Positions 34,830-54,626 of a DNA stretch of 64,000 nucleotides are shown one piece after another (positions within the stretch are counted from its first letter, which is position 1; each line of letters begins with the position of its first letter). A model generated the notes under the pieces. That model worked only from the letters and a program-made list of their open reading frames with translations, did no database searches and was not told the DNA's origin. The stretch is taken from contig OW818688.1 in the NCBI GenBank assembly GCA_942493265.1, positions 4,191,147-4,255,146 on the forward strand, read 5' to 3'. The position numbers and the translations under genes are program-made. The DNA is from an uncultured Bacteroidota bacterium. GTDB lineage: Bacteria > Bacteroidota > Bacteroidia > Bacteroidales > UBA12481.

Positions 34830-34846
34830 ATAAATATCAGTCTATT

Positions 34847-35416
34847 ATGAATATTTTATTGCTCGACAATTACGATAGTTTCACCTACAATATAGCCCAT
34901 TACCTGCGGGAACTCACCGGCAGCGAGATTCCTGTCATCCGGAACGACCAGATAAGTCTGGAGGCAGTGGGAAAATATGATGCGATAGTGCTTTCGCCCG
35001 GACCCGGCTTGCCGGCAGATGCCGGTATCATGAACGACCTGATCCGGAAATATGCCGGAACCAGGAAAATTCTCGGAATCTGTCTGGGCATGCAGGCGAT
35101 CGGTGAAGTATTTGGTGGCACACTATTAAATCTGCCATCCGTTTTTCACGGGGTGGCAACCACTACAGATATTGTGGTCGACGATGAGATACTTTTCCGG
35201 GGACTGCCGAAAAAAATCGAGGTTGGCCGCTACCATTCCTGGGTAGTCGACGAACATAACCTTCCATCGGATCTGGAAATTACCGCCACCGATGAAACCG
35301 GCCGCATCATGGCCCTGCGGCACAAAAAATTTGATGTCAGGGGCGTACAATTCCATCCCGAATCCGTTCTTACCCCTCACGGCAAAACCATGCTCAACAA
35401 CTGGATACAGGGCTAA
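34847..35416 (+). CDS. trpG: Anthranilate synthase component II (glutamine amidotransferase)
   Basis: 189 aa with a GATase-1 triad context (GICLGMQ, FHPES). Confidence 0.95.
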   Translation: MNILLLDNYDSFTYNIAHYLRELTGSEIPVIRNDQISLEAVGKYDAIVLSPGPGLPADAGIMNDLIRKYAGTRKILGICLGMQAIGEVFGGTLLNLPSVFHGVATTTDIVVDDEILFRGLPKKIEVGRYHSWVVDEHNLPSDLEITATDETGRIMALRHKKFDVRGVQFHPESVLTPHGKTMLNNWIQG

Positions 35417-35445
35417 CCGACAACAGATAACAGACAACCGACAAA

Positions 35446-36441: not shown

Positions 36442-36445
36442 AACG

Positions 36446-37240
36446 ATGAACCAACTGGAAACCATAGCAGCCTTCAAGCGTACCGAGGTAGCAGGAAGGA
36501 AAGAGATCTACCCTGTCAATAAGCTGGAGAACAGTGCGTTATTTGACCGAAAAACGGTATCACTGACCGACAGGATCCTACAAAACGGATCTACCGGAAT
36601 TATCGCTGAATTCAAGCGAAAAAGCCCGTCGAAAGGCATGATCAATGCCCATTCGGATGTGGCCGAGGTAACCCGCGGATATATTAAGGCCGGAGCAGCA
36701 GCCCTATCGGTTCTTACCGACAGCCGTTTTTTCGGCGGAAACTCTGAAGATCTGTTGAAGGCAAGGGAGGTAAATGATTGTCCGGTTTTGCGGAAGGAAT
36801 TCATAGTAGATCCGTATCAGATTATTGAAGCCAAATCGATTGGTGCGGATGCCATATTACTGATAGCCGCCATTTTAACTCCCGCTGAAACGTTGAATTT
36901 TGCAACACTTGCACGTTCGCTGGGGATGGCAGCCATTTTGGAAATACATGGAAAAGAAGAACTTGGGCACTTGAATGACCAGATCACCATATTGGGGGTA
37001 AACAACCGGAACCTGGCAGATTTCAGTGTATCACTGGAGATCTCGCTGTCATTGGCACCATTTATCGCCAATGGCATAACGGCCATTTCAGAAAGTGGCA
37101 TCCGCCATCCTGCTGATATCCTCCTGTTAAAACAAGCCGGATACAAAGGTTTTTTGATTGGAGAGCAGTTCATGTCGACTGATGATCCGGCATTTGCCTG
37201 CCACACCTTTATCTCCCAGCTAAACCAAATGCAAAAATGA
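36446..37240 (+). CDS. trpC: Indole-3-glycerol phosphate synthase
   Basis: 264 aa with EFKRKSPSKG and the typical TIM-barrel layout. Confidence 0.95.
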   Translation: MNQLETIAAFKRTEVAGRKEIYPVNKLENSALFDRKTVSLTDRILQNGSTGIIAEFKRKSPSKGMINAHSDVAEVTRGYIKAGAAALSVLTDSRFFGGNSEDLLKAREVNDCPVLRKEFIVDPYQIIEAKSIGADAILLIAAILTPAETLNFATLARSLGMAAILEIHGKEELGHLNDQITILGVNNRNLADFSVSLEISLSLAPFIANGITAISESGIRHPADILLLKQAGYKGFLIGEQFMSTDDPAFACHTFISQLNQMQK

Positions 37241-37863
37241 AAGCCGGGCTAGTCAAAATATGCGGTCTTACCGATCCCGGGAATATCCTTGAAGTAATCC
37301 GGCTGAGGCCCGACTTTATCGGGTTGATCTTTCATCCGGGATCTCCGAGATATATATCTGACCCTGAAGAACTTGTATTCCTGAATAAACTTCATGAACG
37401 TCCGTTGGTAACGGGAGTTTTTGTCAACTCGGATATTGCGCGGATCCGTGAAATCTCAAACAGGATCCGGCTGGATGTCATCCAGTTGCATGGGACAGAA
37501 ACCCCGGAATACTGTGAGGAACTCAAAAATTGCAACCAAATGGTTATCAAGGCCTTTGGCATCCGGCCCGGATTTGATTTTCAGGAAACGGAACCTTACC
37601 GGGGGCTGGTCCGGTATTTCCTGTTCGACAGCGACAGTCCGAAATTTGGTGGCACCGGCCAGCCTTTCGACCATGAAATTTTAAAAAATTACCAGGGGGA
37701 TACGCCCTTCCTTCTTAGCGGGGGGATATCTTCTGAAACGCAGATATTTCCAGATCACCGGCAATTTGCCGGGGTGGATTTGAATTCCAGGTTTGAAACT
37801 GCGCCCGGAATCAAGGATATTGAATTATTGCAAACCTTTTTAAAAAACTTCAGGCATGAATAA
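37237..37863 (+). CDS. trpF: Phosphoribosylanthranilate isomerase
   Basis: 208 aa with N-terminal VKICGL. ATGA overlap with trpC. Confidence 0.9.
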
Positions 37864-39055
37864 ACCAGAATATTTCCCCGATAAAGATGGCTACTATGGT
37901 GAATTCGGAGGTGCTTTTATTCCGGAGATGCTGGTACCCAACATCAAAGAATTGCGCGACAGCTACCTCAGGATAATTGAAAGCCAAGAATTCAGGGATG
38001 AATTTCATGAGTTGCTACGCGACTATTCAGGCCGGCCCACCCCACTCTATCTGGCAAAAAGGTTATCTGAAAAATACCGCACCAACATTTTCCTGAAACG
38101 TGAGGATCTGAATCATACCGGGGCTCACAAGATCAACAACACCATCGGGCAGGTTTTGCTGGCAGAAAAACTGGGCAAAAAGAGGATTATCGCCGAAACC
38201 GGCGCGGGGCAGCATGGGGTTGCCACGGCCACCGTGTGTGCGCTGAAAGGGCTTGAATGCGTTGTATACATGGGAGCTCTGGATGTTGAGCGTCAGGCGC
38301 CGAATGTAACCAAGATGAAAATGCTAGGAGCCACGGTAGTCCCGGTACAATCGGGCAATAAAACGCTTAAGGATGCCACCAATGAGGCTATGCGTGACTG
38401 GATCAATCATCCCGACGATACCTATTATATAATCGGATCCGTTGTTGGGCCACATCCTTATCCGGATCTGGTAGCCAGGATGCAATCGGTTATCAGTTAT
38501 GAGATATCGGTTCAGATTAATGCCCGGACCGGCAGGAATTATCCGGATTATGTTTTGGCATGCGTTGGAGGAGGCAGTAATGCGGCAGGCGGCTTTTATG
38601 CTTTCCTGGATAATCCGGCAGTCAGGCTGATCGGTGCAGAAGCGGCCGGGATGGGTATTGACACCAGTGAAACCGCAGCTACACTGGCATTGGGCCGGAC
38701 AGGCATACTACACGGAAGCAAATCGAAGCTCATACAAGACGAGTATGGCCAGGTTATTGAGCCCTACTCGATCTCGGCAGGACTGGATTATCCGGGAGTG
38801 GGTCCGTTGCATTCTCATCTTCAGGCAACCGGCAGATGCACATACCTGCCGGTAACGGACCGGGAGGCACTGGATGCCGCCATGGAACTCACCCGACTTG
38901 AGGGCATCATCCCTGCGCTGGAATCGGCACATGCGCTGGCCCTGCTTCCAAAACTGAGCTGGGACCCGAATGAGCAGGTTGTGATCGTATTAAGCGGTCG
39001 CGGCGATAAGGATATGGATACTTACAGTAAATATTTCGACCATGAATCGCATTGA
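37856..39055 (+). CDS. trpB: Tryptophan synthase beta chain
   Basis: 399 aa with the PLP lysine motif HTGAHKINN and GGGSNA. Confidence 0.95.
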
Positions 39056-39848
39056 CGAACTTTTCATACGCAAGAAAGAATCGATACTATCGGTTTATTT
39101 CACAGCTGGTTATCCCGAATTAGCAGATACCGCGCTGGTCATCTCCGGTCTGGAAAAAGCCGGAGCAGACCTGATTGAGATCGGGTTTCCCTTTTCCGAT
39201 CCCGTTGCTGACGGACCGGTTATACAGGCGAGCAGCCATCAGGCATTAATCAACGGAATGAATCTTGACATCCTTTTTGATCAGCTCAGGGAACTCAGAA
39301 AGACCAGCAGCATACCCAAAATCATGATGGGTTATTACAATACCGTTTATCAATATCAAATGGAACGGTTTATAGATCAATGTGTTGAATGTGGGATCGA
39401 TGGCGTGATCATCCCCGATCTGCCGCCTGAAATTTATGAAAGAGAATACCGGACACTTTTTGAAAAGTCTGGCATTCATTTTATCTGCCTTGTGGCCCCG
39501 AAAACTTCACCGGATAGAACAAAATATCTGGTTTCGCTGAGTCGCGGGTTCATCTACCTGTTGTCGTCCTCCTCAACCACCGGCAACAATTCCGCTGCAG
39601 GAAAAGAGGACTTGAGTGCCGTCGCACATCTGAAAGGGCAAAACACCCTGATCGGCTTTGGCATACATGACCATGAAACATTTGAGATGGCTTGCCGGCA
39701 GGCTAATGGAGCGATTATCGGGACCGCCTTTATCCGGCACCTGAACGAGGGTTTCGGAGTATTGAGATCGGCTGAAAAATCAAAAATCGGCCGGGCAAGC
39801 ACCATTGAAACCCTTTGCAGGGAATTCGTTGGCCGGATACGAGGGTAA
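39042..39848 (+). CDS. trpA: Tryptophan synthase alpha chain
   Basis: 268 aa with [15 protein letters not shown]. Confidence 0.95.
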
Positions 39849-42286: not shown

Positions 42287-42498
42287 GTTCCCCTGCGCCC
42301 CAACACACATAAGCTTTTCAGAAGCATTGTAGATTTTTTCATCACCTGTTGAATATTTACACACTCATTATATCTGTCTGTGTACTAATACTTTGCCCCA
42401 TTTCGTCAAAATTTGTGTAGAATTTCTCTACAATTCTGGTGTTGCTAATTTCATCGCCTTACATCCTATCATTCTGTTATTCTGATACTTATAACAAT

Positions 42499-42514
42499 TG
42501 GCAAGGTAATTGAA
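42499..42514 (+). promoter_or_regulatory. Weak candidate sigma-54 (-24/-12) promoter TGGCAAGGTAATTGAA
   Basis: The TGGCA -24 element is present with correct spacing to TTGA, but the conserved C of the -12 GC is an A. It lies 32 nt upstream of ATG 42546, and a sigma-54 activator is encoded at the end of the cluster. Confidence 0.2.
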
Positions 42515-42545: not shown

Positions 42546-44264
42546 ATGAACACAAATTTAAAGGCCATGAAAAAGTTAGTTTTAGTACTCATCGGAGCCA
42601 CCCTGATGTTTTCATCTCAGGCAGGCAATTTTCTCAATTCAGGAGGAGATGAGCAGAAATCATCGGATGTAAAAGGGTCAATGACCATTTCCAGCACACC
42701 CGACCTGTTTAAACTGGCAACAGGATGGGCCAGTGAATACTCGGTGATCAATCCGAAAATAAAAATCAATGTGGTTAGTCTGGCCGATCAAACGGGGGAC
42801 CTGTCCACCGGTACGGGAGATAACCTGGCCTTTATTTCAAATGAATCCAACCCTGCCCTGGTCGACGGATCGAAATGGAAAATGGTGATCGGCCGTGATG
42901 CTATTGTACCGGTTATGAATTCATCCAATCCATACCTTGCGGAAATTATCCGGCAGGGGATATCTGCGGCAGAGTTTGCTGGATTTTTCAATTCACCCGA
43001 TCAGCATACCTGGGCCAACCTCCTGGAAGGCGGAAAGAATGTACCGGTGAATTTTTATATGCCGGGCGATGAATCCATAAAATCCACGCTGGCGAACTTC
43101 GCCGGGATCAATTCAAATATGATCCGATCAACGGAAGTAGCAGGCGGACCCGAAATGATCGCTGCCATACAGAATGATCCGATGGCAATCGGCTTTTGTA
43201 AATTGGCTGATATTACTGATCTCTCGGGCCAGAACCTTGTTAATCAGATCAGTTTATTACCCATCGACAAGAACGCGAATGGCAGGATGGATTATATCGA
43301 GAAGATTTATGAAAATGTGACCGACTTATCAAGAGGAATCTGGATCGGGAAATATCCGAAAGAACTTTGCAGGAATTTATATGTAATTGCCCCGGTTAAG
43401 CCAACCGGTGACGAAGAAGTTGCTTTCCTGAAATATGTTCTGTCGGCCGGACAGCAATTCCTCGATATGACCGGATTCAACAGTTTGAACAATACGGAGC
43501 GGCTTTCGAAGATCGATCGGCTGCCGACTGTCTTTCTGACCACGAAAACCTCAAACGGAATTAATTATACCCAGCTGATCATTACCATCCTGGCCGGATT
43601 GATATTCATTGCAGCGGTTATCGCATTTATTCTCAGGTACAGGCGGGCAAACAGTCCGGTAATCCGGAAAACCGCACAGCATTCGGTTCATTCGATCAGC
43701 CAGCATACCATGGAAATCCCCAAAGGTCTCTTTTTCGATAAAACCCATACCTGGGCATTCATGGAAAAAGATGGAACCGTGAAAGTCGGGATCGATGATT
43801 TCCTGCAGCACGTTACCGGGAAGATCACCAGCATCAAGCTGAAAAATCGCGGCGACAAGGTCATCAAAGGAGAACCGGTACTCACCATCATTCAGAATGG
43901 CAAGCGATTAACCATCAGTTCACCCTGTTCGGGAATCATCAGGGATGAAAACCTGATCCTGTTCACTGATCCGTCGTTACTGAACAGTGCACCGTACACC
44001 CAAGGGTGGATATACCTGATGGAGCCAACTAACTGGATGCGGGAAACCCAGTTCCTGTTTATGTCGGAAAAATATTCAGAATGGCTGAAGAAAGAATTTT
44101 CAAGGTTACGGGATTTCCTGGCTCATGCCATAAAACCTGATGTACCTGAATATGCATATGTTATTCTTCAGGATGGAGGTGAAATAACAGATCACTTACT
44201 GGAGAATCTCGGACCAGAAGTATGGGAAGAATTCCAGACCAATTTTATTGAGGCAACCAAATAA
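42546..44264 (+). CDS. Membrane protein: periplasmic PstS/PBP-like domain, one TM helix, cytoplasmic GcvH-like domain plus helical tail
   Basis: 572 aa with a signal peptide and a divergent PBP_like_2-type pattern (MTISSTPDL..., VIGRDAIVPVMNSSNP). TM helix LIITILAGLIFIAAVIAFIL followed by RYRRANSPVIRK. The GcvH-like segment is HTWAFMEKDGTVKVGIDDFLQHVTGKI...QNGKRLTISSPCSGII...PYTQGWIYLMEP. Confidence 0.7.
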   Translation: MNTNLKAMKKLVLVLIGATLMFSSQAGNFLNSGGDEQKSSDVKGSMTISSTPDLFKLATGWASEYSVINPKIKINVVSLADQTGDLSTGTGDNLAFISNESNPALVDGSKWKMVIGRDAIVPVMNSSNPYLAEIIRQGISAAEFAGFFNSPDQHTWANLLEGGKNVPVNFYMPGDESIKSTLANFAGINSNMIRSTEVAGGPEMIAAIQNDPMAIGFCKLADITDLSGQNLVNQISLLPIDKNANGRMDYIEKIYENVTDLSRGIWIGKYPKELCRNLYVIAPVKPTGDEEVAFLKYVLSAGQQFLDMTGFNSLNNTERLSKIDRLPTVFLTTKTSNGINYTQLIITILAGLIFIAAVIAFILRYRRANSPVIRKTAQHSVHSISQHTMEIPKGLFFDKTHTWAFMEKDGTVKVGIDDFLQHVTGKITSIKLKNRGDKVIKGEPVLTIIQNGKRLTISSPCSGIIRDENLILFTDPSLLNSAPYTQGWIYLMEPTNWMRETQFLFMSEKYSEWLKKEFSRLRDFLAHAIKPDVPEYAYVILQDGGEITDHLLENLGPEVWEEFQTNFIEATK

Positions 44265-44280
44265 TTAAAAACAAGAAATC

Positions 44281-45147
44281 ATGGGAGTAGATCGCAGAGT
44301 ATTTATGAAAACGCTGGGGTTAACCGGAACTGCCCTGGCCCTGGGTAAGAATTTGGGGGCCGCCCCTAAAAGCAAAAGCGACGTTGAATTTTACGGAGTA
44401 TTGTATGATTCAACCCGCTGCGTTGGTTGCCAGACTTGTGAAGTCACCTGTGCCGAAGCTCATGGCTATCCGGCACCTACTGATGTTCCGGAAGCGGGAG
44501 TTACCCGGAAAACAAATGAAAACTGCCGTACGGTGGTTAATGCTTTCAAAACTTCGAAAGGGGAGGTATACAGCAAGCAGCAGTGCATGCATTGCAATGA
44601 ACCGGCCTGCGCAGCTGCCTGTCTCACCCAGGCCATGTATAAAACCAAGGAAGGCCCGGTTATCTGGCGTGCCGATAAATGCATGGGGTGCCGTTACTGC
44701 ATGGTTTCCTGTCCGTTTGATGTTCCAAAATTTGAGTTCCATAGTGCCAATCCAAAGATTGTAAAATGCGACATGTGCTATGACCGCCTCAAGGAAGGAA
44801 AGAAGCCTGCATGTGCCGAAAACTGTCCGGCCGAAGCCATAACGTTCGGAACCCGCAGGGAACTGCTGCATGAAGCGCAGAAACGCATTCATGACCAGCC
44901 CGATGTTTATCAGGACTATATTTATGGGGCACATGAAGCCGGTGGAACCGGTGAATTGTATGTAGCACAGGTACCGCCTGCCGAGCTGGGATTCAGGACC
45001 AATCTTCAGCAGGAATCGTATCCGGCATTATCAAAGGGATTTTTGTACAGCGTTCCCTCCGTATTCGTATTGCTGCCCGTTTTATTGCTGGGCATACATG
45101 AAACCACCAAGAATAAAAACCATAATGAAGGAGATGAAAATGAGTAA
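44281..45147 (+). CDS. Tat-exported 4x[4Fe-4S] ferredoxin-type subunit (HybA/NrfC/PsrB/DsrO family) with C-terminal TM anchor
   Basis: 288 aa with the twin-arginine motif DRRVFMK. Four Cys groups: CVGCQTCEVTC, CMHCNEPACAAAC, CMGCRYCMVSCP, CDMC...CAENCP. C-terminal hydrophobic helix VPSVFVLLPVLLLGI. Confidence 0.85.
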   Translation: MGVDRRVFMKTLGLTGTALALGKNLGAAPKSKSDVEFYGVLYDSTRCVGCQTCEVTCAEAHGYPAPTDVPEAGVTRKTNENCRTVVNAFKTSKGEVYSKQQCMHCNEPACAAACLTQAMYKTKEGPVIWRADKCMGCRYCMVSCPFDVPKFEFHSANPKIVKCDMCYDRLKEGKKPACAENCPAEAITFGTRRELLHEAQKRIHDQPDVYQDYIYGAHEAGGTGELYVAQVPPAELGFRTNLQQESYPALSKGFLYSVPSVFVLLPVLLLGIHETTKNKNHNEGDENE

Positions 45148-46366
45148 CTCAGCCTATCCTCTTGCGAAAGACAATGATGGAAAATCCATCTTTAAGTTCA
45201 TACTCAGTGAATTCAAACCGAAAGACAAGTTGCTGACACCGTTCAATATCATTTCCATTCCGGTCATAATATTGGGGGTGGTGCTGATTGTCATCCGGTT
45301 TTGGAAAGGAATCGGTTCAGTCACGAATCTCACCCAGGAAGTTCCCTGGGGCCTTTGGATCGGCTTTGATGTGGTTACCGGTGTGGCCTTTGCCGGAGGC
45401 GCCTATGTGCTCACTTTCATTGTTTACATCCTCAACAACCAGAAATACCATTCCATTGTTAGGATCACGGTTTTAAACGGATTTCTCGCCTATGTATTCT
45501 ATGCAGGGGCCTTGCTTCTTGATCTGGGCCGACCATGGAATGTGATCAACCCGATTATTGGAAATAATTTCGGGACCAGTTCGGTCCTATTCCTGGTAGC
45601 CTGGCATTTTCTGCTGTACATGCTGGCACAACTGATTGAATTCTCTCCTGCCGTGGCAGAGTGGCTCGGTGCACGGCGGGCGCGCAAAATCCTATCTGGA
45701 ATGACCATTGCAGCGGTGATTTTCGGGATCACGCTATCCACCCTGCATCAATCCGGACTGGGAGCGCTATATCTGATGGCTAAGGACAAGATCCATCCAC
45801 TCTGGTACTCCGAATTTATTCCGATCATGTTTCTGATATCCAGCATATTTGCCGGACTTTCGATGGTTATTTTCGAAGGATCGATCAGTCATCGCGTGTT
45901 TTTCAGCCAGATTTCTGAGAAAAACCATCACGCGCAGAACGGCATTATCCAGGGGTTATCGAAAATTTGTGCCGGGGCCATGTTCGCTTACTTTTCCCTC
46001 CAGATCCTGGTATTTATCCACGAAAAACGGTGGGATCTTATCAATACTCCTATGGGATACTGGTATTTGGTTGAAATGATCGGTTTTGTGCTGATTCCCA
46101 TGATACTGTTCGTTTACAGTTACCGGAGAAAAAACATTAATCTGATCAAGGTGGCCGCCATCATGACCATGGTGGGAGTCATACTCAACCGGCTTAACGT
46201 AACGGTAATCGGATTCAGGTGGGATGAAGCAATCCGGTATGTTCCATCCTGGATGGAAGTTGTGATCACTTTGACCGTGATTTTCACCGAGATCTGGATC
46301 TTCCGATGGGTAGTGAGGCGGATGCCCGTATTGCGTGAATCACCCTCCTGGGTTGAAAAAGAGTAA
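45140..46366 (+). CDS. NrfD/HybB/PsrC-family integral membrane (quinone-interacting) subunit
   Basis: I prefer ATG 45140 (MSNSAYP...), which overlaps the upstream stop within ATGAGTAA. About 8-10 TM helices and a HybB/NrfD-like motif VPWGLWIGFDVVTGVAFAGG. Confidence 0.8.
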   Translation: MSNSAYPLAKDNDGKSIFKFILSEFKPKDKLLTPFNIISIPVIILGVVLIVIRFWKGIGSVTNLTQEVPWGLWIGFDVVTGVAFAGGAYVLTFIVYILNNQKYHSIVRITVLNGFLAYVFYAGALLLDLGRPWNVINPIIGNNFGTSSVLFLVAWHFLLYMLAQLIEFSPAVAEWLGARRARKILSGMTIAAVIFGITLSTLHQSGLGALYLMAKDKIHPLWYSEFIPIMFLISSIFAGLSMVIFEGSISHRVFFSQISEKNHHAQNGIIQGLSKICAGAMFAYFSLQILVFIHEKRWDLINTPMGYWYLVEMIGFVLIPMILFVYSYRRKNINLIKVAAIMTMVGVILNRLNVTVIGFRWDEAIRYVPSWMEVVITLTVIFTEIWIFRWVVRRMPVLRESPSWVEKE

Positions 46367-46388
46367 TAAACATTTAAAAAATATTAAA

Positions 46389-47105
46389 ATGGACGGATTT
46401 AGTTATTCCAACATCTTCGAAACAAAAGGGATTGAATATCTGGCAATCATTGCATTCTTTGCCATCCTGATCCCCTTCTGGATCATTCTGAACAGGCAGG
46501 CAAAAACCAGAAGACTGCAAAAACTTGCAGGAACCTTGTCGCCCGCTACGCTGCGCATTCCCCAGGGGCTTTTCTTCAGCAGGAACCATACCTGGACCCA
46601 TCTCGAAAGATCAGGTATTGCCAAAATCGGGCTCGACGACATGCTGATCAGGATTACCGGTGACATTAAGGTTATCAACCATGCGAAACCCGGCGATTCC
46701 ATCAGGAAAGGCGAATTGCTCGCCGAGATAGATCACAACGGAAAACAGCTCAGGGTGTACTCCCCTGTTTCAGGAGAAGTAAAGTGCACAAACTCTTTGC
46801 TCAATGAACAGCCGGAAATCATGAATGAAGATCCTTTCCGCAAAGGATGGATTTATCAGGTAATTCCTTCCAACTGGGTGGAAGAAACCCGGTCGTACTA
46901 CCTGGCAGGCGAAGCCACCAGCTGGATGTCGAAGGAACTCATAAGATTCAAGGATTTCCTGATGATGTCGGCCGGAAGAAACTCCATTGAAACTTCTGGT
47001 ATAATCCTGCAGGACGGAGGTGAGCTGCGCGATAATACACTTGCGGAAATGCCCGAAGAACTGTGGCATGACTTTCAGAAGAATTTTATGAGCAAAAACG
47101 ACTGA
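46389..47105 (+). CDS. Membrane-anchored GcvH-like domain protein (paralog of the C-terminal half of 42546..44264)
   Basis: I prefer ATG 46389 (MDGFSYSNIFE...). One TM helix (LAIIAFFAILIPFWIIL) followed by NRQAKTRRLQK. The GcvH-like segment is HTWTHLERSGIAKIGLDDMLIRITGDI...HNGKQLRVYSPVSGEV...PFRKGWIYQVIP. It shares the tail ILQDGGE...W.(D/E)FQ.NF with the first protein. Confidence 0.7.
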   Translation: MDGFSYSNIFETKGIEYLAIIAFFAILIPFWIILNRQAKTRRLQKLAGTLSPATLRIPQGLFFSRNHTWTHLERSGIAKIGLDDMLIRITGDIKVINHAKPGDSIRKGELLAEIDHNGKQLRVYSPVSGEVKCTNSLLNEQPEIMNEDPFRKGWIYQVIPSNWVEETRSYYLAGEATSWMSKELIRFKDFLMMSAGRNSIETSGIILQDGGELRDNTLAEMPEELWHDFQKNFMSKND

Positions 47106-47187
47106 AATATTGAATAATTCAACACTTTTTGATCGGTAATGCCTAAATTTACAAGCATCGGTCTGATGTTTGAATTAATAAATATGC

Positions 47188-48870
47188 ATGTTGAAAAGAG
47201 GAAAAAACAAAACCTGGATCGGAAGTCCATCCTTAAGAAAAAAGTACCTCAGGTTCCGATCATCGATTTACAGCCGCGTTGTCCTGGTTATCGGAATATT
47301 ATCCATTTTCCTGCTTGTATCCAACAATGTTATTTTCAGGTCGGTCAATGACGGATACATAAACTCCGTCATCCATCAGAACGGAAGCAATATAGGGTCA
47401 ATTGTTGAAGGGGCCTTATACCATTCCATGCTTGAAAATAACAGAAGCGCTCTACAGAATACGCTGGATGTTATCAATACAATGCCGGGGATCGATGATG
47501 TTAACATGTATGATAATCAGGACAATCTGGCCTATTCCTCCTTTTCTGAATCCAGGGAGGGCCACATTGATCCCAATTGCAAGGGGTGCCATAAGGATTT
47601 AGCCACAATGTTTCCGGTACAGGAGAAATCATACCGGATCATCGACAGCCACAGTGAATGCCTGATGAGTCAAACGGATAACAATACCCGGCATTTGCTG
47701 ATCCGGTCGCCTATCCTGAACGAACCCTCCTGTTATAATTCCAAGGCCTGTCATGCCCATGATCCGAATGAAGCGGTTCTGGGTTCCCTGTTTATTAAGA
47801 TGCCATTGGCAGATGTTGATGCAGCCGTTAAAAAATCATCGACTGAATTCTTTTTGCTTGCTGCGCTGATGACTCTTTTTATGGCGTCATTTCTAGTGCT
47901 TTTTACGCGCAATAACATTAAAAATCCGCTGAACGCAATCATCAAGGCCAGCGAAGCCGTATCAACCGGGGATAACAGCGCCCGTTTGGAAGTCAGTCCG
48001 GACCAGCTCGATGATATCAGAATGCTCTCCTATGCATTCAACCATATGCTGGATAATCTCCAGACTGCCAATACGGAACTTCAGAACTGGTCGAAACAGC
48101 TGGAGTACAAAGTCCAGAAAAAATCGGAAGAATTGGGCGAGGTTCAAAACGAACTTATTAATATTGAGCGAATTGCATCACTTGGAAAGCTATCATCCTC
48201 TGTTGCCCATGAGATCAACAACCCCTTATCCGGGATATTGGTATACACTAAGCTGGTTCATAAAAAGCTGAGTACGGAGAACATAGATCCCGAGAAAAAG
48301 AAATCCATGCTAACGCACCTGAAGCTCATCGAAGATGAAACAAAACGGTGCGGGGATATTGTGAAGGGACTGCTGGATTTCTCCAGAAAGGACCAGGATG
48401 ATTTTGAAACCAGGCATCTGAATGAAATTCTGCTGGAGACATACAACCTGATGGCGCATCCGATCAACATTGCCAATATCAACTTTCTGACAGACTTCAG
48501 CGCGGTTCATGATTTAACCTGGTGCAGTCCCAATCAGATCAAGCAGGCATGCGTGGCTATACTGGTCAACGCTTCCGAGGCGGTGGCTGAAAATGGAGAA
48601 GTTGTGTTCAGGAGCAGTAATCCGGATGCGGATACCATAAAATTCGAGATAACCGATAACGGAGCAGGCATCGCTCCGGAGGACATTCCGCATGTTTTCC
48701 AGCCGTTTTTCACAACCAAGAGCAACGGTGCCGGCATCGGACTCGGATTATCGATTGTACACGGTATTATTCAGAGTCATAACGGTAAAATTGATATAAA
48801 ATCAGAGCCGGGAAAGGGAACCACCGTTTCGATAACCCTGCCACTGGTAACTAATAAAGGAGACGAATGA
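47188..48870 (+). CDS. Sensor histidine kinase with periplasmic Cys/His-rich domain (one CXXCH), HAMP, HisKA, HATPase
   Basis: 560 aa with two TM helices flanking a ~190-aa loop. The loop contains CKGCH (47578-47592) and C-X5-CHAH (47731-47760). A HAMP-like segment follows, then H-box SSVAHEINNPLSGI and the G-box GAGIGLGLSIV. Confidence 0.85.
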   Translation: MLKRGKNKTWIGSPSLRKKYLRFRSSIYSRVVLVIGILSIFLLVSNNVIFRSVNDGYINSVIHQNGSNIGSIVEGALYHSMLENNRSALQNTLDVINTMPGIDDVNMYDNQDNLAYSSFSESREGHIDPNCKGCHKDLATMFPVQEKSYRIIDSHSECLMSQTDNNTRHLLIRSPILNEPSCYNSKACHAHDPNEAVLGSLFIKMPLADVDAAVKKSSTEFFLLAALMTLFMASFLVLFTRNNIKNPLNAIIKASEAVSTGDNSARLEVSPDQLDDIRMLSYAFNHMLDNLQTANTELQNWSKQLEYKVQKKSEELGEVQNELINIERIASLGKLSSSVAHEINNPLSGILVYTKLVHKKLSTENIDPEKKKSMLTHLKLIEDETKRCGDIVKGLLDFSRKDQDDFETRHLNEILLETYNLMAHPINIANINFLTDFSAVHDLTWCSPNQIKQACVAILVNASEAVAENGEVVFRSSNPDADTIKFEITDNGAGIAPEDIPHVFQPFFTTKSNGAGIGLGLSIVHGIIQSHNGKIDIKSEPGKGTTVSITLPLVTNKGDE

Positions 48871-50210
48871 TGGCAAAGAAAATCTCAATTTTAATCGTCG
48901 ATGATGAACGATCGGTGCGTGATTCGCTCTTTAATTGGTTTATCGAGGACGGATACCGGGTTGAATGTGCTGAAAATGCCAAAGCTGCCTTAACAATGCT
49001 GGAATCCGACAATTTCGACATCATTCTGGCCGATATCAAAATGCCGGGTATGGACGGACTGGAAATGCTGAGGAGAATAAAATCCCTGAAAAAGGAATCG
49101 ATAGTCATTGTTATGACGGCATTTGCAACCGTGGATACCGCTGTACAGGCATTGAAGGACGGAGCATTTGATTATGTGACCAAACCATTTGATCCTGACG
49201 ACTTATCCCATCTGATCAGGAACGCATCAAAACAGATCATACTCAGTGATGAAAACGAATCGCTGAAGGAGCGGGTGGTATCGCTGGAAAACGTTGAAGA
49301 TCTGATTGGCACCAGCGAAGCAATTCAGATGGTGCTGAAGCAGGTTGAAAGTGTTGCCCAATCCAATTCTTCGGTCATAATCACCGGAGAGAGCGGAACT
49401 GGCAAAGAACTCATTGCCAGGGCTATTCACGCCAATTCACCCCGAAAATTCTTTCCTTTGGTGAGTGTACATTGCGGAGCGCTTACCGAGAGTTTGCTGG
49501 AGAGTGAGCTGTTTGGCCATGAGAAGGGAGCATTTACCGGAGCCATGTACAATCGGAAAGGCCGGTTTGAAATGGCTGATGGCGGCACCATTTTCCTGGA
49601 TGAGATTGCCACGATTTCAACCAAAATGCAGGTAGAACTGCTTCGGGTACTGGAATCAAAAAGCTTTATCAGGGTTGGCGGAAATAAAGAGATTACCTCA
49701 GATTTCAGGGTCATATGTGCCACCAACAGGGATTTAAAAAGTATGGTAGAGAACGGTACTTTTCGCGAAGATTTGTATTACCGGTTGAATGTGGTCAACA
49801 TCCATGTTCCACCCTTACGTGACCGGACCGGGGATATCCCGCAGCTGGTTGAGTATTTCATCAGAAAATATTGCACTTCGATGAACCGGCTTCCGGTTAC
49901 CATCGAGGCCCAGGCATTAAAACGTTTGCAGGAATTCGATTTCCCGGGAAATATCAGGGAATTGGAGAACATGGTTGAACGGGCCATTGTCATTGGAAAC
50001 GGCAGGAAGATTACCATGAAAGACCTGCCACTGCAAAAAAGTATCATTACCAATTCCACGGAAAGCCTGGATGATGTTGAAAAGCACCACATTCTGCAAA
50101 TTCTGACCAATCACGAATGGAACATAACGCGAACGGCAAAAGCATTACAGGTTGACCGGGTGACCCTCTACAACAAAATCAAGAAATACAATCTCAAGCC
50201 TATTGATTGA
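48867..50210 (+). CDS. Sigma-54-dependent response regulator (REC, AAA+, Fis-type HTH; NtrC family)
   Basis: 447 aa with REC (ILIVDDE...ADIKMPGMDG), Walker A GESGTGKE, the GAFTGA loop (EKGAFTGA) and a C-terminal HTH. ATGA overlap with the kinase gene. Confidence 0.9.
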   Translation: MMAKKISILIVDDERSVRDSLFNWFIEDGYRVECAENAKAALTMLESDNFDIILADIKMPGMDGLEMLRRIKSLKKESIVIVMTAFATVDTAVQALKDGAFDYVTKPFDPDDLSHLIRNASKQIILSDENESLKERVVSLENVEDLIGTSEAIQMVLKQVESVAQSNSSVIITGESGTGKELIARAIHANSPRKFFPLVSVHCGALTESLLESELFGHEKGAFTGAMYNRKGRFEMADGGTIFLDEIATISTKMQVELLRVLESKSFIRVGGNKEITSDFRVICATNRDLKSMVENGTFREDLYYRLNVVNIHVPPLRDRTGDIPQLVEYFIRKYCTSMNRLPVTIEAQALKRLQEFDFPGNIRELENMVERAIVIGNGRKITMKDLPLQKSIITNSTESLDDVEKHHILQILTNHEWNITRTAKALQVDRVTLYNKIKKYNLKPID

Positions 50211-50246
50211 TAATGCATTAAACAAATTTAATACGGGCTGTGCCTC

Positions 50247-50780
50247 ATGATTGAAAAAGGAGTGGAACTAATCTCATTCGGATATTTTGAGGATGATTTT
50301 CTCGAAAAGATTGCCCATTCCGTAGCCCGCGAGTATAATGTCCAGGTGCATTTCAGGGAAGGCCATTTTGATCTCAGTGAATTTTATGATCCCGCCCGAA
50401 GGCAATACAATGGCAATCTGCTGTTGCAGGAAGTTGACAGACAATATGCTGCAGAATCCTCGAAAACTTTCGGATTGTTTTATGTAGATCTGTTCATCCC
50501 GATTCTGACCTATATATTCGGACAGGCATTTTTGGGAGGAAGAACCGCGATTGCCTCGATTTACCGGCTCAGCAATGAGCGCTATGGATTAAGGGAATAC
50601 GAGGATCTTCTGCTGGAGCGGCTCACCAAGGAGGTTATCCACGAACTCGGGCACACTTTCGGGTTGATTCACTGTCATGTTCCGGCCTGTGTAATGGGTT
50701 CAAGCACCTATGTGGAAGATATCGACCAGAAGAGCCCGAACCTGTGCAGCAAGTGCAGGGAGGAGGTGCAGTTGTTATGA
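50247..50780 (+). CDS. Archaemetzincin-like zinc metalloprotease
   Basis: 177 aa. HELGHTFGLIHCHVPACVM...CSKC closely matches the archaemetzincin signature HEXXHXXGX3CX4CXM...CXXC. Confidence 0.7.
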   Translation: MIEKGVELISFGYFEDDFLEKIAHSVAREYNVQVHFREGHFDLSEFYDPARRQYNGNLLLQEVDRQYAAESSKTFGLFYVDLFIPILTYIFGQAFLGGRTAIASIYRLSNERYGLREYEDLLLERLTKEVIHELGHTFGLIHCHVPACVMGSSTYVEDIDQKSPNLCSKCREEVQLL

Positions 50781-50888: not shown

Positions 50889-51479
50889 TTGAAAATATTC
50901 ATCAAATATATGGTCAGCAACCGATGCATCATGGTGGTGAAGGAAGAATTGAAAAAACTCGGACTTCACTTTATCGTGGTAGACATGGGCGTGGTTGACA
51001 TTATGGAGGATATCACGAGCGATCAGAGGGAGCAGATCAGAACTTCGCTGATTAATTCCGGTTTGGAACTCATGGATGACAAAAAAGCAATGCTGATTGA
51101 GAAAATCAAATCGGTTATCATTGAAATGGTGCACCATTCGAATGAACTGATCAAAAGGAATTTTTCGGATTATTTAAGCGAAAAGTTGAATCATGATTAC
51201 ACCTATATGGCAAACCTGTTCTCCGAGGTACAGGGTACAACGATTGAGCATTTCATTATCTCCCATAAAATTGAAAGAATCAAGGAACTGATCATCTATG
51301 GCGAATTAAACATCACTGAGATTGCCTGGAAGATGAATTACAGCAGCGTAGCCCATCTGTCCAATCAGTTTAAAAAGGTAACAGGGCTTTCACCTTCCCA
51401 TTTTAAGAAATTGAAAGATAAGAGGAGAAATCCGATCGAGGACATAGGTTTACTGGAGCATCCGAACACACAAAACTAA
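50889..51479 (+). CDS. AraC-family transcriptional regulator (small N-terminal domain plus HTH_18)
   Basis: 196 aa with a TTG start, which gives the N-terminus MKIFIKYMVSNRCIMVVKEEL typical of this Bacteroidota AraC subfamily. AraC-type HTH (ITEIAWKMNYSSVAHLSNQFKKVTGLSPSHF). Confidence 0.8.
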   Translation: MKIFIKYMVSNRCIMVVKEELKKLGLHFIVVDMGVVDIMEDITSDQREQIRTSLINSGLELMDDKKAMLIEKIKSVIIEMVHHSNELIKRNFSDYLSEKLNHDYTYMANLFSEVQGTTIEHFIISHKIERIKELIIYGELNITEIAWKMNYSSVAHLSNQFKKVTGLSPSHFKKLKDKRRNPIEDIGLLEHPNTQN

Positions 51480-51480
51480 A

Positions 51481-54198
51481 ATGGACAAAACAATCACACC
51501 TCAGTCACAATACGCAAGCAGTTTGATCGAAGCCAGTCTGGACCCGCTAATAACAATCAGTCCCGTTGGAATTATCACTGATATGAACGGTGCCATGCTC
51601 AGCATCACAGGCATGACCCGCGAGGAACTCACCGGTACCGACTTTTTTGAATATTTTACTGAACCGGCAAAGGCCCGAAGGGTAATGCAGCTGGTTATTA
51701 CCAAAGGATTTGTTACTGATTCTCCCCTCACCCTTCGGCATGCGAACGGACGGCTGACCGATGTTTTGTTTAATGGTACAGTGTATAAGGATCGCGAAGG
51801 TATCGTTCAGGGAGTTATAATTGTAACGCGGGATATTGGCGAACAAAAATGGGCCATTGAGCTACTCAAAGCCAATAAAGAGCTTGCCTTTCAAAACCAG
51901 GTAAAAGAGAAGCGGGCCGCGGAGCTGGTGATCGCCAACAAGGAACTTGCTTTCCAAAACGATGAGAAAGAAAAGAGGGCAGCAGAATTGGTGATTGCCA
52001 ACAAGGAACTTGCTTTTCAAAATGACGAAAAAGGAAAGCGGGCTGCGGAGCTGGTGATTGCCAACAAGGAACTTGCCTTTCAAATCGGAGAAAAAGCAAA
52101 GCGCGCAGGTGAATTAGTTTTGGCGGATAAGGAGCTGGTCTATCAGAACAAGGAGAAGAAAAAGCAGGAAATTGCTACAATAGAGCTTAAAGCAGTCAGT
52201 AATTCAGCAAAACTCGACTCACAATATTCACGGAGCCTGATAGAAGCGAGTCTGGACCCGCTGTTCACGATCAATCTGGAAGGAAAAATCACTGATCTGA
52301 ATGATGCTTCTGCCAACATTACCGGTGTTTCCAGGGATAATTTAATCGGCTCGGACTTCTTCGACTATTTCACCGAACCTCAGAACGCACGTGAAGTGTA
52401 TCAGGAGGTATTTGCAAAAGGTTTTGTGGCAGATTATCCATTAACCATCCGGGACGGCAAGCTGACCGATGTTTTGTTCAACGGATCTGTTTATAAAAAT
52501 GACAGTGGCGACGTACAGGGAGTGGTGGTGGTTGCCAGGGACATAACCGATCAGAAAAGAAATGCCGCTGAATTAACTGAGGCGATTGTGTTTGCCGAGC
52601 TGGCAACAGGTTTTGCTGAGGAAGCCAAATTAAAAGCCGAAAGTGCCACGATTATTGCTGAAAATGCCGTGAAGGCCAAGCAGCAATTTCTTTCGAACAT
52701 GAGTCATGAGATCCGTACCCCGATGAATGCCATTATCGGATTTACGAAAGTTCTGCTTAAAACCGAACTCACATCCAAGCAAAATGAATACTTAACCGCC
52801 ATAAAAATGAGCGGCGATGCTTTAATCGTACTGATCAATGACATCCTGGACCTGGCAAAAGTTGATGCCGGAAAAATGACATTTGAGCAAACCCCATTCA
52901 AAATGGCCCTGTCGATATCAGCCATGCTCCATTTGTTTGAAACAAAAATCCAGGAAAAAAACCTGAAACTCATAAAGGAATACGACAGAAGGATCCCGGA
53001 GATATTGGTTGGTGACCCGGTTCGGTTACACCAGATCATATTAAACCTGGTTAGCAATGCCGTTAAATTCACAACCAAAGGATCTATTACGGTTGCGGTG
53101 CGTTTACTGAATGAAGATGAGGAGAAGGCAACCGTCGAATTCTCCGTTAAGGATACCGGTATAGGCATACCGGAAAATAAAATAGGAAAGATCTTTGAAA
53201 ATTTCCAGCAGGCATCAAGCGGAACCTCAAGGCTTTACGGCGGAACCGGTTTGGGCCTGGCCATTGTGAAGCAATTGGTGGAACCACAGGGAGGCACTAT
53301 TAAAGTTGTGAGCAAGATGGGTGAAGGATCGACCTTCAGCTTCATTCTGAACTTTCAGAAAACCACCGCTCAAACCCAGCTGGAATCGGAAATTGTAGAA
53401 CTCGACAGTGAAATCACCAACATCAGGGTGCTGGTTGTTGAAGACATTCCACTGAATCAATTATTGATGAAAACATTACTGGATGAGTTCAAATTTGAAT
53501 GTGAGATTGCTGGAAATGGTCAAATCGCCGTTGATAAGTTAATGGCTAATTCCTTTGATATCGTCCTCATGGACTTACAGATGCCTGAAATGAACGGATT
53601 CGAAGCTACGGATTACATCAGGGGCAAGTTGAAGTCGGATATCCCGATCATCGCCCTTACGGCCGATGTAACCACCGTTGACCTGGCAAAATGCAAGGCA
53701 GTGGGCATGAACGATTATATCGCAAAACCCGTTGACGAAAGATTACTGTACAGCAAGATTGTTGGACTGGTAAAAAATCCGAACCTCATTAAAACTGCTA
53801 AAATAGAGGACATGTGTACTGAAGATAACGAAAAGGTCCGGTGCATCGACCTCGATTACCTGACACACCGTACAAAATCAAATCCAAAGCTGATGGCGGA
53901 AATGATTGCAGCCTATCTGGAACAAACCCCTCCACTGATTTCAGCCATGAAAAAAAGTCTGGCCGAAAAAGACTGGAACCTGTTGTATTCAGCGGTTCAT
54001 AAAATGATTCCGTCATTTTCCATCATGGGAATCAGCATGGATTTCGAAATTATGGCCAAAACCGTTCAGGAATTTGCCAGCACGCAAAAACAGGCTGAAG
54101 GCATACCGGCTTTGGTTTTGAAACTAGAAAACATTTGCAATCAGGCTTGTGACGAATTAAATGAAGAGTTAACCCGTATAAATGAAACCAACTCATGA
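51481..54198 (+). CDS. Hybrid sensor histidine kinase: PAS, repeat linker, PAS, HisKA, HATPase, REC, HPt
   Basis: 905 aa with two PAS domains (SLIEASLDPL... appears twice). H-box FLSNMSHEIRTPMNAIIGF, HATPase (DTGIGI, GGTGLGLAIVK), REC (VLVVEDIPLN...LMDLQMPEMNG...KP) and a helical HPt-like C-terminus. Confidence 0.9.
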   Translation: MDKTITPQSQYASSLIEASLDPLITISPVGIITDMNGAMLSITGMTREELTGTDFFEYFTEPAKARRVMQLVITKGFVTDSPLTLRHANGRLTDVLFNGTVYKDREGIVQGVIIVTRDIGEQKWAIELLKANKELAFQNQVKEKRAAELVIANKELAFQNDEKEKRAAELVIANKELAFQNDEKGKRAAELVIANKELAFQIGEKAKRAGELVLADKELVYQNKEKKKQEIATIELKAVSNSAKLDSQYSRSLIEASLDPLFTINLEGKITDLNDASANITGVSRDNLIGSDFFDYFTEPQNAREVYQEVFAKGFVADYPLTIRDGKLTDVLFNGSVYKNDSGDVQGVVVVARDITDQKRNAAELTEAIVFAELATGFAEEAKLKAESATIIAENAVKAKQQFLSNMSHEIRTPMNAIIGFTKVLLKTELTSKQNEYLTAIKMSGDALIVLINDILDLAKVDAGKMTFEQTPFKMALSISAMLHLFETKIQEKNLKLIKEYDRRIPEILVGDPVRLHQIILNLVSNAVKFTTKGSITVAVRLLNEDEEKATVEFSVKDTGIGIPENKIGKIFENFQQASSGTSRLYGGTGLGLAIVKQLVEPQGGTIKVVSKMGEGSTFSFILNFQKTTAQTQLESEIVELDSEITNIRVLVVEDIPLNQLLMKTLLDEFKFECEIAGNGQIAVDKLMANSFDIVLMDLQMPEMNGFEATDYIRGKLKSDIPIIALTADVTTVDLAKCKAVGMNDYIAKPVDERLLYSKIVGLVKNPNLIKTAKIEDMCTEDNEKVRCIDLDYLTHRTKSNPKLMAEMIAAYLEQTPPLISAMKKSLAEKDWNLLYSAVHKMIPSFSIMGISMDFEIMAKTVQEFASTQKQAEGIPALVLKLENICNQACDELNEELTRINETNS
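51859..52173 (+). repeat. Five in-frame tandem 63-bp repeats encoding ELVIANKELAFQN(D/Q)EKEKRAA-type 21-mers
   Basis: Read directly from the sequence. The copies differ mainly at synonymous or conservative positions. They lie between the two PAS domains of the hybrid kinase. Confidence 0.9.
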
Positions 54199-54626
54199 GT
54201 AAAGAGAAAATAAAAATCTACCTGGTAGATGACGATGCTGTATTTTTAAAATCCCTGGAAATTGATTTCCTGCAGCATGCCGACTTTACGATTGAAACTT
54301 TTGCAACAGGTGAACTATGCATTGGGGCATTGTCGGACTCCCCCGACGTGATCATCCTGGACTATTTCCTTGACGGAATAGATAAGAATGCTATGAACGG
54401 GATTGAAACACTTGATAAAATCAAGGCATTCAACCCGGAAATTCCCGTTATCATATTGTCATGTCAGGACAAGATCGAAGTAGCGGTTAACTGCATGCAT
54501 CATTTGGCATTTGACTATGTTGTCAAGAGTGAAACGGCCTTTGTACGGTTACAAAAAATTATCACATCCATTTTCCGCCAACAAAAACTGGAAAAAGAAT
54601 TAAACTGGTACATGGATAGAATGTAG
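54195..54626 (+). CDS. Single-domain response regulator (CheY-like receiver)
   Basis: 143 aa with IYLVDDD, ILDYFL and a conserved K (VVKSE). No output domain. ATGA overlap with the hybrid kinase gene. Confidence 0.85.
   Translation: MSKEKIKIYLVDDDAVFLKSLEIDFLQHADFTIETFATGELCIGALSDSPDVIILDYFLDGIDKNAMNGIETLDKIKAFNPEIPVIILSCQDKIEVAVNCMHHLAFDYVVKSETAFVRLQKIITSIFRQQKLEKELNWYMDRM

Follow-up and report, generated by a model that had tools for sequence, protein, structure and literature searches.

A seven-gene module of uncultured Bacteroidia joining an FeS-NrfD pair to membrane-anchored H-protein-fold subunits, with a predicted sigma-54 control region

A stretch of 64,000 nucleotides (hereafter the window) of contig OW818688.1, from an uncultured Bacteroidota bacterium, contains a cluster of seven genes, g1 to g7, at window positions 42546 to 50780 of the plus strand. 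An iron-sulfur (FeS) protein and a NrfD-type membrane subunit (g2, g3) stand between two transmembrane (TM)-anchored subunits of the H-protein fold (g1, g4), and are followed by a sensor histidine kinase (g5), an NtrC-type sigma-54 activator (g6) and an archaemetzincin-family protease (g7). The order g1 to g7 recurs in about 85 independent Bacteroidia loci and the cluster is therefore more than chance; it is one real, co-conserved module. An FeS-NrfD pair is the usual means of linking periplasmic enzymes to the quinone pool, and such pairs are mostly understood via their catalytic partner. The pair described here is unusual in being partnerless in cis and always joined to H-protein-fold subunits. 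To our knowledge, proteins of the H-protein fold have elsewhere been described only as lipoyl carriers. The cluster is tentatively read, at slightly less than an even chance, as a periplasmic electron-transfer module of the Hyb/Hmc type that is inducible and linked to menaquinone, has its own heme-sensor kinase and sigma-54 activator, and has acquired two H-protein adaptors and a metalloprotease.

Gene order and conservation

A sequence-only reading of the window had described the first six genes. All six open reading frames (ORFs) lie on the plus strand exactly where that reading had placed them, and its domain calls were confirmed by profile searches. The seventh gene, g7, is co-conserved with them and was added. 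The genes are closely packed, with a 16-nt gap between g1 and g2, an 8-nt overlap of g2 and g3, a 22-nt gap between g3 and g4, an 82-nt gap between g4 and g5, and a 4-nt overlap of g5 and g6.

Relatives were surveyed by scanning one genome per species for relatives of g4, which were present in 361 species genomes. The best 80 of the 361 are nearly all metagenome-assembled genomes (MAGs) of Bacteroidia, with labels including Prolixibacteraceae, Lentimicrobiaceae, Mariniphaga, Draconibacterium and Tangfeifania. In essentially all of these 80 loci (L001 to L080), tblastn with the window proteins returned the order g1-g2-g3-g4-g5-g6 followed by g7. The same seven genes are kept in more distant loci (L083, L084, L085, L091) found by exhaustive profile search. 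Co-conservation of the structural genes, on which the sequence-only reading depended, is borne out by this shared order. The most conserved protein is g3, with 74-92% identity in most loci and 53-62% in three Lentimicrobiaceae-like loci; the least conserved is g1 (37-66%).

The module was found only in Bacteroidia MAGs, except for three phage-like contigs and one MAG labelled Omnitrophica. The latter (L026, JBLMZZ010000202.1) carries a complete module, and its label is probably a binning error rather than an occurrence outside Bacteroidia. The carriers number in the hundreds and are uncultured anaerobic Bacteroidia of lake, sediment, groundwater and digester origin. In databases the genes bear names such as 'glycine cleavage system protein H', 'HybB-like protein' and 'polysulfide reductase NrfD', which are uninformative about the system.

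The earlier statement that no catalytic partner is encoded nearby holds for the whole 64-kb window, in which no catalytic or multiheme partner was found and the remainder is housekeeping. All flanking ORFs of 80 loci were clustered into families. No flanking family occurs in more than 12 of the 80 loci, the commonest flanking genes being those for Lgt (12/80), SecA, RF3 and ferritin; no catalytic subunit has therefore been lost here. A subunit of this kind that is adjacent in other genomes and missing only from the window would have undone the proposal, and none is attached in any of the roughly 85 loci.

Predicted subunits and control region

Protein g2 (44281-45147, 288 aa) is, by profiles and motifs, a tail-anchored, HmcB/HybA-like ferredoxin with four [4Fe-4S] motifs. 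It carries a twin-arginine translocation (Tat) motif, DRRVFMK, at residues 4-10 and a hydrophobic C-terminal tail at 254-272. The cluster cysteines fall into the groups 47/50/53/57, 102/105/110/114, 134/137/140/144 and 163/166/178/182, and all 16 are conserved in 65 orthologues, as are the Tat motif and the tail. The protein matches Fer4_11 of Pfam; its scores against HmcB (NF045715, 300 bits, cut-off 420) and HybA (NF008134, 219.8 bits, cut-off 263) are below the equivalog level. It thus fits the HybA-like class of Tat-type, tail-anchored four-cluster ferredoxins, with cluster binding and export predicted. Protein g3 (45140-46366, 408 aa) is, by profiles and hydropathy, a polytopic membrane subunit of the NrfD family, HmcC/HybB-like and with about ten hydrophobic segments. 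It belongs to the family by its score against NrfD (PF03916, 63.9 bits, cut-off 25.8) and is below the equivalog level for both HmcC (NF045714, 405 bits, cut-off 550) and HybB (NF008133, 265 bits, cut-off 450). No sequence relatives of g3 were found in the PDB, and a homologue search that returned very close relatives only was uninformative. Topology, membrane segments and export were judged by hydropathy and the positive-inside rule.

The two subunits that flank this pair share a C-terminal half. Protein g1 (42546-44264, 572 aa) consists of a signal peptide, a PstS-like periplasmic domain, one TM helix (43566-43634), a cytoplasmic H-protein-fold domain and a C-terminal extension. Protein g4 (46389-47105, 238 aa) consists of a 16-aa periplasmic stub, a TM helix, a cytoplasmic H-protein-fold domain and a paralogous C-terminal extension, which the sequence-only reading had missed. 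The extension, W…E..RFKDF…LQDGGE…W..FQ..F, is common to both proteins (LQDGGE of g1 at 44166-44183) and absent from ordinary H-proteins. An exhaustive profile search gave 377 clusters (50% identity) at E<=1e-30, and the best 150 of them, all at E<=1e-52, are nearly all of about 235-245 aa (g4 type) or about 540-590 aa (g1 type).

Membership of the fold family is clear from GCV_H (PF01597, cut-off 22.2), with 80.6 bits for g1 and 72.7 bits for g4; against the GcvH equivalog TIGR00527 (cut-off 115.85) the two domains reach 61.9 and 67.8 bits and remain below it. In an AlphaFold2 model of g4 (predicted local distance difference test score, pLDDT, 80) a TM helix and an H-protein domain are seen. 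Foldseek aligned the model domain with E. coli H-protein (3a8i_E) at a TM-score of 0.92 and a root-mean-square deviation of 1.3 Å, and two extra C-terminal helices span residues 173-195 and 223-233. The GcvH-like assignment thus survives both profile and structure comparison, and the fold may be regarded as solid on the strength of the model. A net charge of +5 follows the TM helix of both proteins, and the 16-residue N-terminal stub of g4 has a charge of -2, which would place the H-protein domains in the cytoplasm. The topology proposed earlier, with these domains inside and the FeS protein and the periplasmic binding protein (PBP)-like domain outside, is in agreement with the positive-inside rule.

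The suggestion of a swinging arm fared less well. Ungapped HMMER alignment to the H-proteins of E. coli and Thermus, and MAFFT alignment, agree in placing Gly118 of g4 and Gly452 of g1 in the column of E. coli Lys65 (Met-1 numbering). A Lys lies one residue further on in both proteins (Lys119 and Lys453; the invariant Gly452-Lys453 of the g1 domain is at 43893-43907). In g1 this Lys is invariant in 66/66 orthologues and is preceded by an invariant Gly; in g4 it is replaced by Arg in 3 of 25 orthologues and in P0254. An invariant Cys of the LbpA type was not found among the g4 orthologues, and no lipoate ligase, synthase or other lipoate-handling gene lies in or near any locus. A radical-SAM gene adjacent to locus L086 was considered as a lipoyl synthase and rejected, being generic, YydG-like and not LipA. 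With an invariant Gly in the canonical Lys column and Arg at the adjacent position of some g4 orthologues, a lipoyl swinging arm appears unlikely, though still conceivable for g1.

The membrane anchors of g1 and g4 differ in conservation. Identity of g4 across orthologues is 92% in the periplasmic stub, 86% in the TM helix and 62% in the GcvH domain, and g4 therefore appears to be docked through a specific membrane contact, which looks most plausibly to be made with the equally conserved g3. The TM helix of g1, with 20% identity, looks like a generic anchor only. The periplasmic domain of g1 (38% identity) matches PBP_like_2 weakly (31.4 bits, cut-off 27) and scores 25.8 against TIGR02136 (cut-off 206.6). 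Its PDB matches to PstS are weak (E about 1e-4), and the Ser/Thr/Arg binding positions are, by inspection, unconserved in 66 orthologues. Some lineages and the phage copies described below are without most or all of this domain. The earlier description of the domain as ligand-binding is weakened by its low identity, by the unconserved PstS-type binding residues and by its loss in some lineages. The best-conserved stretch of the periplasmic domain is an EF-hand-like loop, DKNANGRMDYIE (D-x-N-x-N-G-x-x-D-x-x-E; residues 241-252, 43266-43301), together with the following RG.W.GKYP. The loop persists in the phage copies and possibly binds calcium.

Protein g5 (47188-48870, 560 aa) is a sensor histidine kinase with a periplasmic Cache/PDC-like domain (about residues 51-220), HAMP, HisKA and HATPase_c. 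Between two TM segments lies a CXXCH motif (CKGCH, residues 131-135, 47578-47592), followed by C158xM160 (residues 156-160, 47653-47667) and C182x5C188-H189-x-H191 (residues 182-191, 47731-47760). Residues H..P.C131xxC134H135, C158xM160 and C182x5C188H189xH191 are invariant in 34-36 orthologues. The sensor domain has no Pfam match, DUF3365 included, no sequence match in the PDB and no detectable relatives outside its own kinase family. An AlphaFold2 model built from database homologues (pLDDT 75) comprises a long helix and five strands in single Cache/PDC topology, with the CXXCH in a loop between beta-strands; its Foldseek matches include WalK, CusS, KinD, DctB and the heme-c sensor GSU0935 (E 2e-4). 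On this model, g5 is plausibly a heme-c sensor of the Cache type, and the second Cys/His/Met set could form a non-standard heme site or a metal site.

Protein g6 (48867-50210, 447 aa) is an NtrC-type response regulator and sigma-54 activator with a receiver (Response_reg, 113 bits), an AAA+ domain (Sigma54_activat, 237 bits) with GAFTGA at residues 221-226, and HTH_8 (48.8 bits). It has the features of an NtrC-class bacterial enhancer-binding protein. The last gene of the module is always g7 (50247-50780, 177 aa), for a zinc metalloprotease of the archaemetzincin family (NF033823, 156.5 bits, cut-off 145) with the zinc site HELGHTFGLIH and four conserved Cys (Cys4 site).

Upstream of g1, in a region that the sequence-only reading had not noted, a putative sigma-54-type promoter, TGGCAA-GGTAA-TTGA (TGGCAAGGTAATTGA; -24 element TGGCA, -12 element TTGA), is located at 42499-42513, 33 nt before the start of g1. 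Three enhancer-like palindromes precede it on the same strand. The nearest, TGTAGA-N5-TCTACA (42416-42432), is 83 nt upstream of the -24 element and is likely a binding site of the g6 activator. The second, TGTTGAATATTTACACA (42347-42363), is 152 nt upstream of the same element, and the distal one, TGTAGATTTTTTCATCA (42328-42344), has one mismatch to TGTWKA-N5-TMWACA. A search with the canonical sigma-54 consensus TGG-N9-TGC gave no matches upstream of g1 in 50 loci. Alignment of the upstream regions, with the -12 element relaxed to TTG[AG], disclosed the conserved motif TGGCA[C/T]-N5-TTG[A/G], which 61 of 64 loci carry no further than 300 nt upstream of g1, against a background of 0.2 per kb. 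A first enhancer pattern with a 6-nt spacer gave no matches; the correct spacer is 5 nt. At least one 17-bp palindrome TGTWKA-N5-TMWACA is found upstream of the promoter in 59 of 62 loci at near-fixed offsets from the -24 element, typically about -83/-93, also -152 to -164 in most of the 62, and about -171/-181 in many loci. The combination of palindrome and promoter was encountered 69 times in 1.52 Mb of fetched DNA, 67 times directly upstream of g1. This is the architecture expected of an operon under an NtrC-type activator, for which g6 would be the obvious candidate, binding and transcription being predicted. The conserved promoter and palindromes would tie the structural genes to the kinase and activator of the cluster itself.

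The gap between g4 and g5 ranges from 67 to 1040 nt across loci, and the kinase, activator and protease genes probably have their own promoter. A further near-perfect palindrome of the enhancer type, TATTGAATAATTCAACA (47108-47124, plus strand), immediately follows the stop codon of g4 and precedes the kinase gene. It was rejected as a general feature of the module, being conserved only in the four closest relatives (L001, L003, L004, L007), and is a possible extra activator site.

Variant forms of the module were seen at several loci. A third TM-GcvH paralogue lies between g1 and g2 in L042 (2079-2795) and in related Lentimicrobiaceae-like loci (the L069/L074 group). Locus L086 (1540-5921) reads GcvH (233 aa), FeS, NrfD, GcvH (243 aa), a degenerate GcvH (251 aa; GCV_H at E=1e-3) and kinase, with no PBP domain. 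In L091, g1 is shortened to 334 aa.

The three phage-like contigs comprise two large IMG/VR phage genomes (3300025121_000023, 112 kb; 3300022555_000086, 49 kb) and one further contig; a second phage scan with a broader profile returned the same two IMG/VR contigs, leaving three cases overall. They encode GcvH-type subunits only, with no FeS or NrfD genes. These proteins are 43-45% identical to g4 and keep all motifs. Locus L088 (7307-8702) has a tandem GcvH-type pair of 229 and 233 aa, and L087 (7305-8669) and L081 (3328-4692) each encode a 454-aa protein. In this 454-aa protein a signal peptide is combined with the conserved C-terminal portion of the periplasmic domain of g1, which includes the EF-hand-like loop, and with a g4-type stub and TM helix, the H-protein domain and the C-terminal extension. 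The phage genes have as neighbors a SbcC-like nuclease, homing endonucleases, a head-tail adaptor and auxiliary genes of NAD salvage (isochorismatase and NAPRTase in L087). The extra paralogues in L042 and L086 and the tandem pair of a phage indicate that the GcvH-type subunits behave as a unit, and the phage forms suggest that this unit is able to plug into a host complex or to act alone. Anti-phage models of PADLOC gave generic AAA+ and receiver matches for g6 only, and none for g1 to g5 or g7.

Several other genes of the window adjoin the module or lie near it. A run of co-directional ORFs upstream (33435-39848) is, judging by translations, a predicted tryptophan-biosynthesis operon, whose last two ORFs (37856-39055 and 39042-39848) are taken as putative trpB and trpA. 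These adjoin the cluster only in close relatives (both in L004, trpA alone in L006), and the module is therefore inserted in variable contexts. Further upstream, an ORF with a match to the tocopherol-cyclase family (32277-33254; PF14249, E=3e-21) adjoins a transporter gene of the major facilitator superfamily. Downstream lies a hybrid PAS histidine kinase (51481-54198) in which five tandem 21-residue units (…ELVIANKELAFQNDEKEKRAA…; 51871-52185) separate two PAS regions, with an AraC-like ORF (50889-51479) upstream of it and a stand-alone receiver (54195-54626) downstream. The AraC-like ORF, the hybrid kinase and the receiver also follow the cluster in L002 and L040.

Proposed working and alternative explanations

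In the proposed working, g5 would sense a periplasmic redox or gas signal through a covalent heme in its Cache-like domain, as the CXXCH and the predicted fold suggest. It would then phosphorylate g6, as expected from its family, and g6 would bind the two or three 17-bp palindromes and open the sigma-54 promoter before g1. Proteins g1 to g4, which are co-conserved, would be made and might assemble as one complex. The FeS-NrfD pair would exchange electrons with the menaquinone pool on one side and, on the other, with a periplasmic partner not encoded in cis; we infer the quinone chemistry and the direction of electron flow. This partner might be a protein whose gene lies elsewhere, a small molecule with redox activity, or the heme of the kinase. 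Proteins g1 and g4 would present their H-protein-fold domains and C-terminal extensions at the cytoplasmic face, g4 being docked through its highly conserved stub and TM helix; the domains are most likely non-lipoylated adaptor or regulatory domains, and not lipoyl carriers. Protein g7, which is likewise co-conserved, would be a cytoplasmic protease.

Several observations weigh against this electron-transfer reading. In all known cases an FeS-NrfD pair works for a catalytic or cytochrome partner (PMC10924467). The phage contigs carry GcvH-type subunits without FeS or NrfD genes, and these subunits may hence be independent of the redox pair. At 60 of 61 loci the -12 element reads TTGA or TTGG, where the textbook form is TTGC. 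The g5 sensor does not match the described Cache_haem family DUF3365, and covalent modification at the shifted, invariant Lys453 of g1 is possible.

The same parts could instead form an accessory sensing complex, in which the FeS-NrfD pair and the PBP-like and H-protein domains carry no metabolic flux, keep the kinase or the activator informed of the menaquinone redox state or of a periplasmic ligand, and feed back on their own sigma-54 promoter, by analogy with TorT/TorS, PstSCAB-PhoU/PhoR and PspBC/PspA/PspF. Within the cluster a heme motif occurs in the kinase only, alongside a periplasmic FeS protein that is partnerless in cis. No relatives of the kinase sensor were detected outside its orthologous group, and this suggests that sensor and module evolved together. 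Within the DNA examined the cis-regulatory signature is peculiar to this operon, and in g1 a cytoplasmic domain is joined to one that is weakly PstS-like. Against this, the inducible genes are the structural ones, much as in respiratory operons induced by their substrate; the genes for kinase and activator stand behind the variable g4-g5 gap, probably with their own promoter; and identity as high as that of g3 is seen more often in energy-transducing core subunits than in sensor accessories. The PBP-like domain is also dispensable in some lineages, and the view of the regulon covers ±10 kb of the cluster. A purely sensory role is considered unlikely, though it is the main rival of the electron-transfer reading. 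A swinging-arm relay, in which the shifted Lys of g1, and usually of g4, would bear lipoate or another acyl cofactor and the domains would pass on reducing equivalents, or ferry a bound intermediate, at the cytoplasmic face, is clearly more improbable. The H-protein fold is genuine, Lys453 of g1 and the Gly before it are invariant, and both the phage copies and L086 have a Lys in this column. Possible analogues are the biotin carriers of Na+-translocating decarboxylases and LbpA of the sHdr system; GcvH-like LbpA proteins do act in a redox system (PMC6067878). The canonical lipoyl-Lys column holds Gly, Asp, Asn or Glu here, with the Lys displaced by one residue. In lipoyl domains such a displacement prevents lipoylation. 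The Arg found in some g4 proteins, the absence of the conserved Cys of LbpA and of lipoate genes (the radical-SAM gene at L086 not being LipA-like), and the fact that NrfD subunits are without a cofactor for electron transfer across the membrane to the cytoplasmic side also argue against a relay.

The remaining alternative is a decayed hydrogenase-2, Hmc or Nhc operon, in which the FeS-NrfD pair was left after loss of its partner and the neighbors are adjacent by chance. It would account for the best family matches of g2 and g3 being HmcB/HybA and HmcC/HybB, all below the equivalog cut-offs. Decay is hard to reconcile with a seven-gene order in about 85 loci of many families with intact frames and a g3 that is 74-92% identical in most of them, with flanks that vary between loci, with the conservation of all 16 cluster cysteines, and with a conserved, dedicated promoter architecture. 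This explanation is extremely improbable and is effectively refuted by the synteny survey. A bolder view than the electron-transfer reading, doubtful but worth stating, is that the module represents an undescribed class of membrane complex in which TM-tethered H-protein subunits with a new C-terminal domain couple the quinone-linked FeS-NrfD module to a cytoplasmic output, either a sigma-54 signal or chemistry at the displaced Lys. The GcvH pair would then be the functional heart of the system, and large Bacteroidia phages would carry copies to take it over.

The combination would be surprising to specialists in bioenergetics or in Bacteroidia. Once its function is known, the many genomic entries now called 'glycine cleavage system protein H' or 'HybB-like protein' could be interpreted, and the presence of GcvH-type subunits in phages would be explained. 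Such work would also test whether NrfD subunits pass conformational or ionic signals on to the cytoplasmic side, and would define a clean Bacteroidia sigma-54 regulatory unit of sensor, activator, binding sites and promoter. With every part and the promoter mapped, the system is directly testable.

Comparison with known systems

The core pair resembles HybA/HybB of E. coli hydrogenase 2 and HmcB/HmcC of Desulfovibrio (also Nhc/Ohc) in its tail-anchored four-cluster Tat ferredoxin. As in HybA/B and HmcB/C, the FeS gene is followed by, and translationally coupled to, that of a cofactor-less NrfD-type quinone-interacting subunit. The order periplasmic protein, FeS protein, NrfD protein and single-pass TM protein of hmcA-B-C-D is mirrored by g1 to g4, but here non-redox modules take the place of cytochromes. 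Whereas the Hyb, Hmc and Nhc systems include a hydrogenase, multiheme cytochrome, cytochrome b or HdrD-like subunit, the present module has none of these, and its FeS-NrfD pair is flanked by two TM-anchored H-protein-fold subunits. Contexts recorded in a survey of tail-anchored FeS/HybB-like pairs are hydrogenase 2, octaheme cytochrome modules, Hmc and periplasmic [FeFe] hydrogenase, and GcvH-type subunits occur in none of the contexts surveyed (PMC10924467).

The g1 and g4 domains have the same fold as GcvH and LbpA, with GCV_H scores well above the cut-off. LbpA of sHdr, a GcvH-like protein that acts in a redox system with the Lys strictly kept and two Cys added (PMC6067878), sets a precedent for recruitment of an H-protein relative to a redox complex outside glycine cleavage. 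Proteins g1 and g4 differ from GcvH and LbpA in being anchored to the membrane by a TM helix N-terminal to the H-protein domain, in having Gly in the lipoyl-Lys column with the Lys shifted by one and no LbpA cysteines, and in adding a C-terminal extension of about 70 residues with invariant RFKDF, LQDGGE and W..FQ. They also differ in context, with no glycine-cleavage, Hdr-like or lipoate-maturation genes near the cluster.

On the regulatory side, the Cache_haem (DUF3365) family has recently been described (PMC12889525). Protein g5 shares with its members, and with GSU0935 and GSU0582 of Geobacter, a predicted periplasmic PAS/Cache-type fold with CXXCH between two TM helices and a cytoplasmic signaling module, but is without a DUF3365 match and has a second conserved Cys/His/Met set. 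The pair g5/g6 is built like ZraS/ZraR and AtoS/AtoC, as a HisKA/HATPase kinase and an activator with receiver, AAA+ (GAFTGA) and Fis-type helix-turn-helix domains, and has upstream palindromic enhancer-like sites and a putative -24/-12 promoter in common with pairs of the NtrC family. It differs from ZraSR and AtoSC in scores far below the equivalog cut-offs and in a -12 element of TTGA. A two-component system adjoining the membrane redox genes that it regulates is also seen in the substrate-induced respiratory operons ttrBCA/ttrSR and torCAD/torSTR, which the proposed arrangement resembles, but the regulated operon here is without a catalytic reductase.

No description of the cluster was found in the open-access literature on GcvH, NrfD, HybA/B, HmcB/C, archaemetzincin or the Bacteroidia sigma-54 regulon, in accordance with the earlier impression that no complex of such composition has been characterized. 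Taken singly, the core pair, the class of regulator and the folds have been described before. New are the composition, the lack of any catalytic partner in cis, and the membrane-tethered, probably non-lipoylated H-protein subunits with their C-terminal extension.

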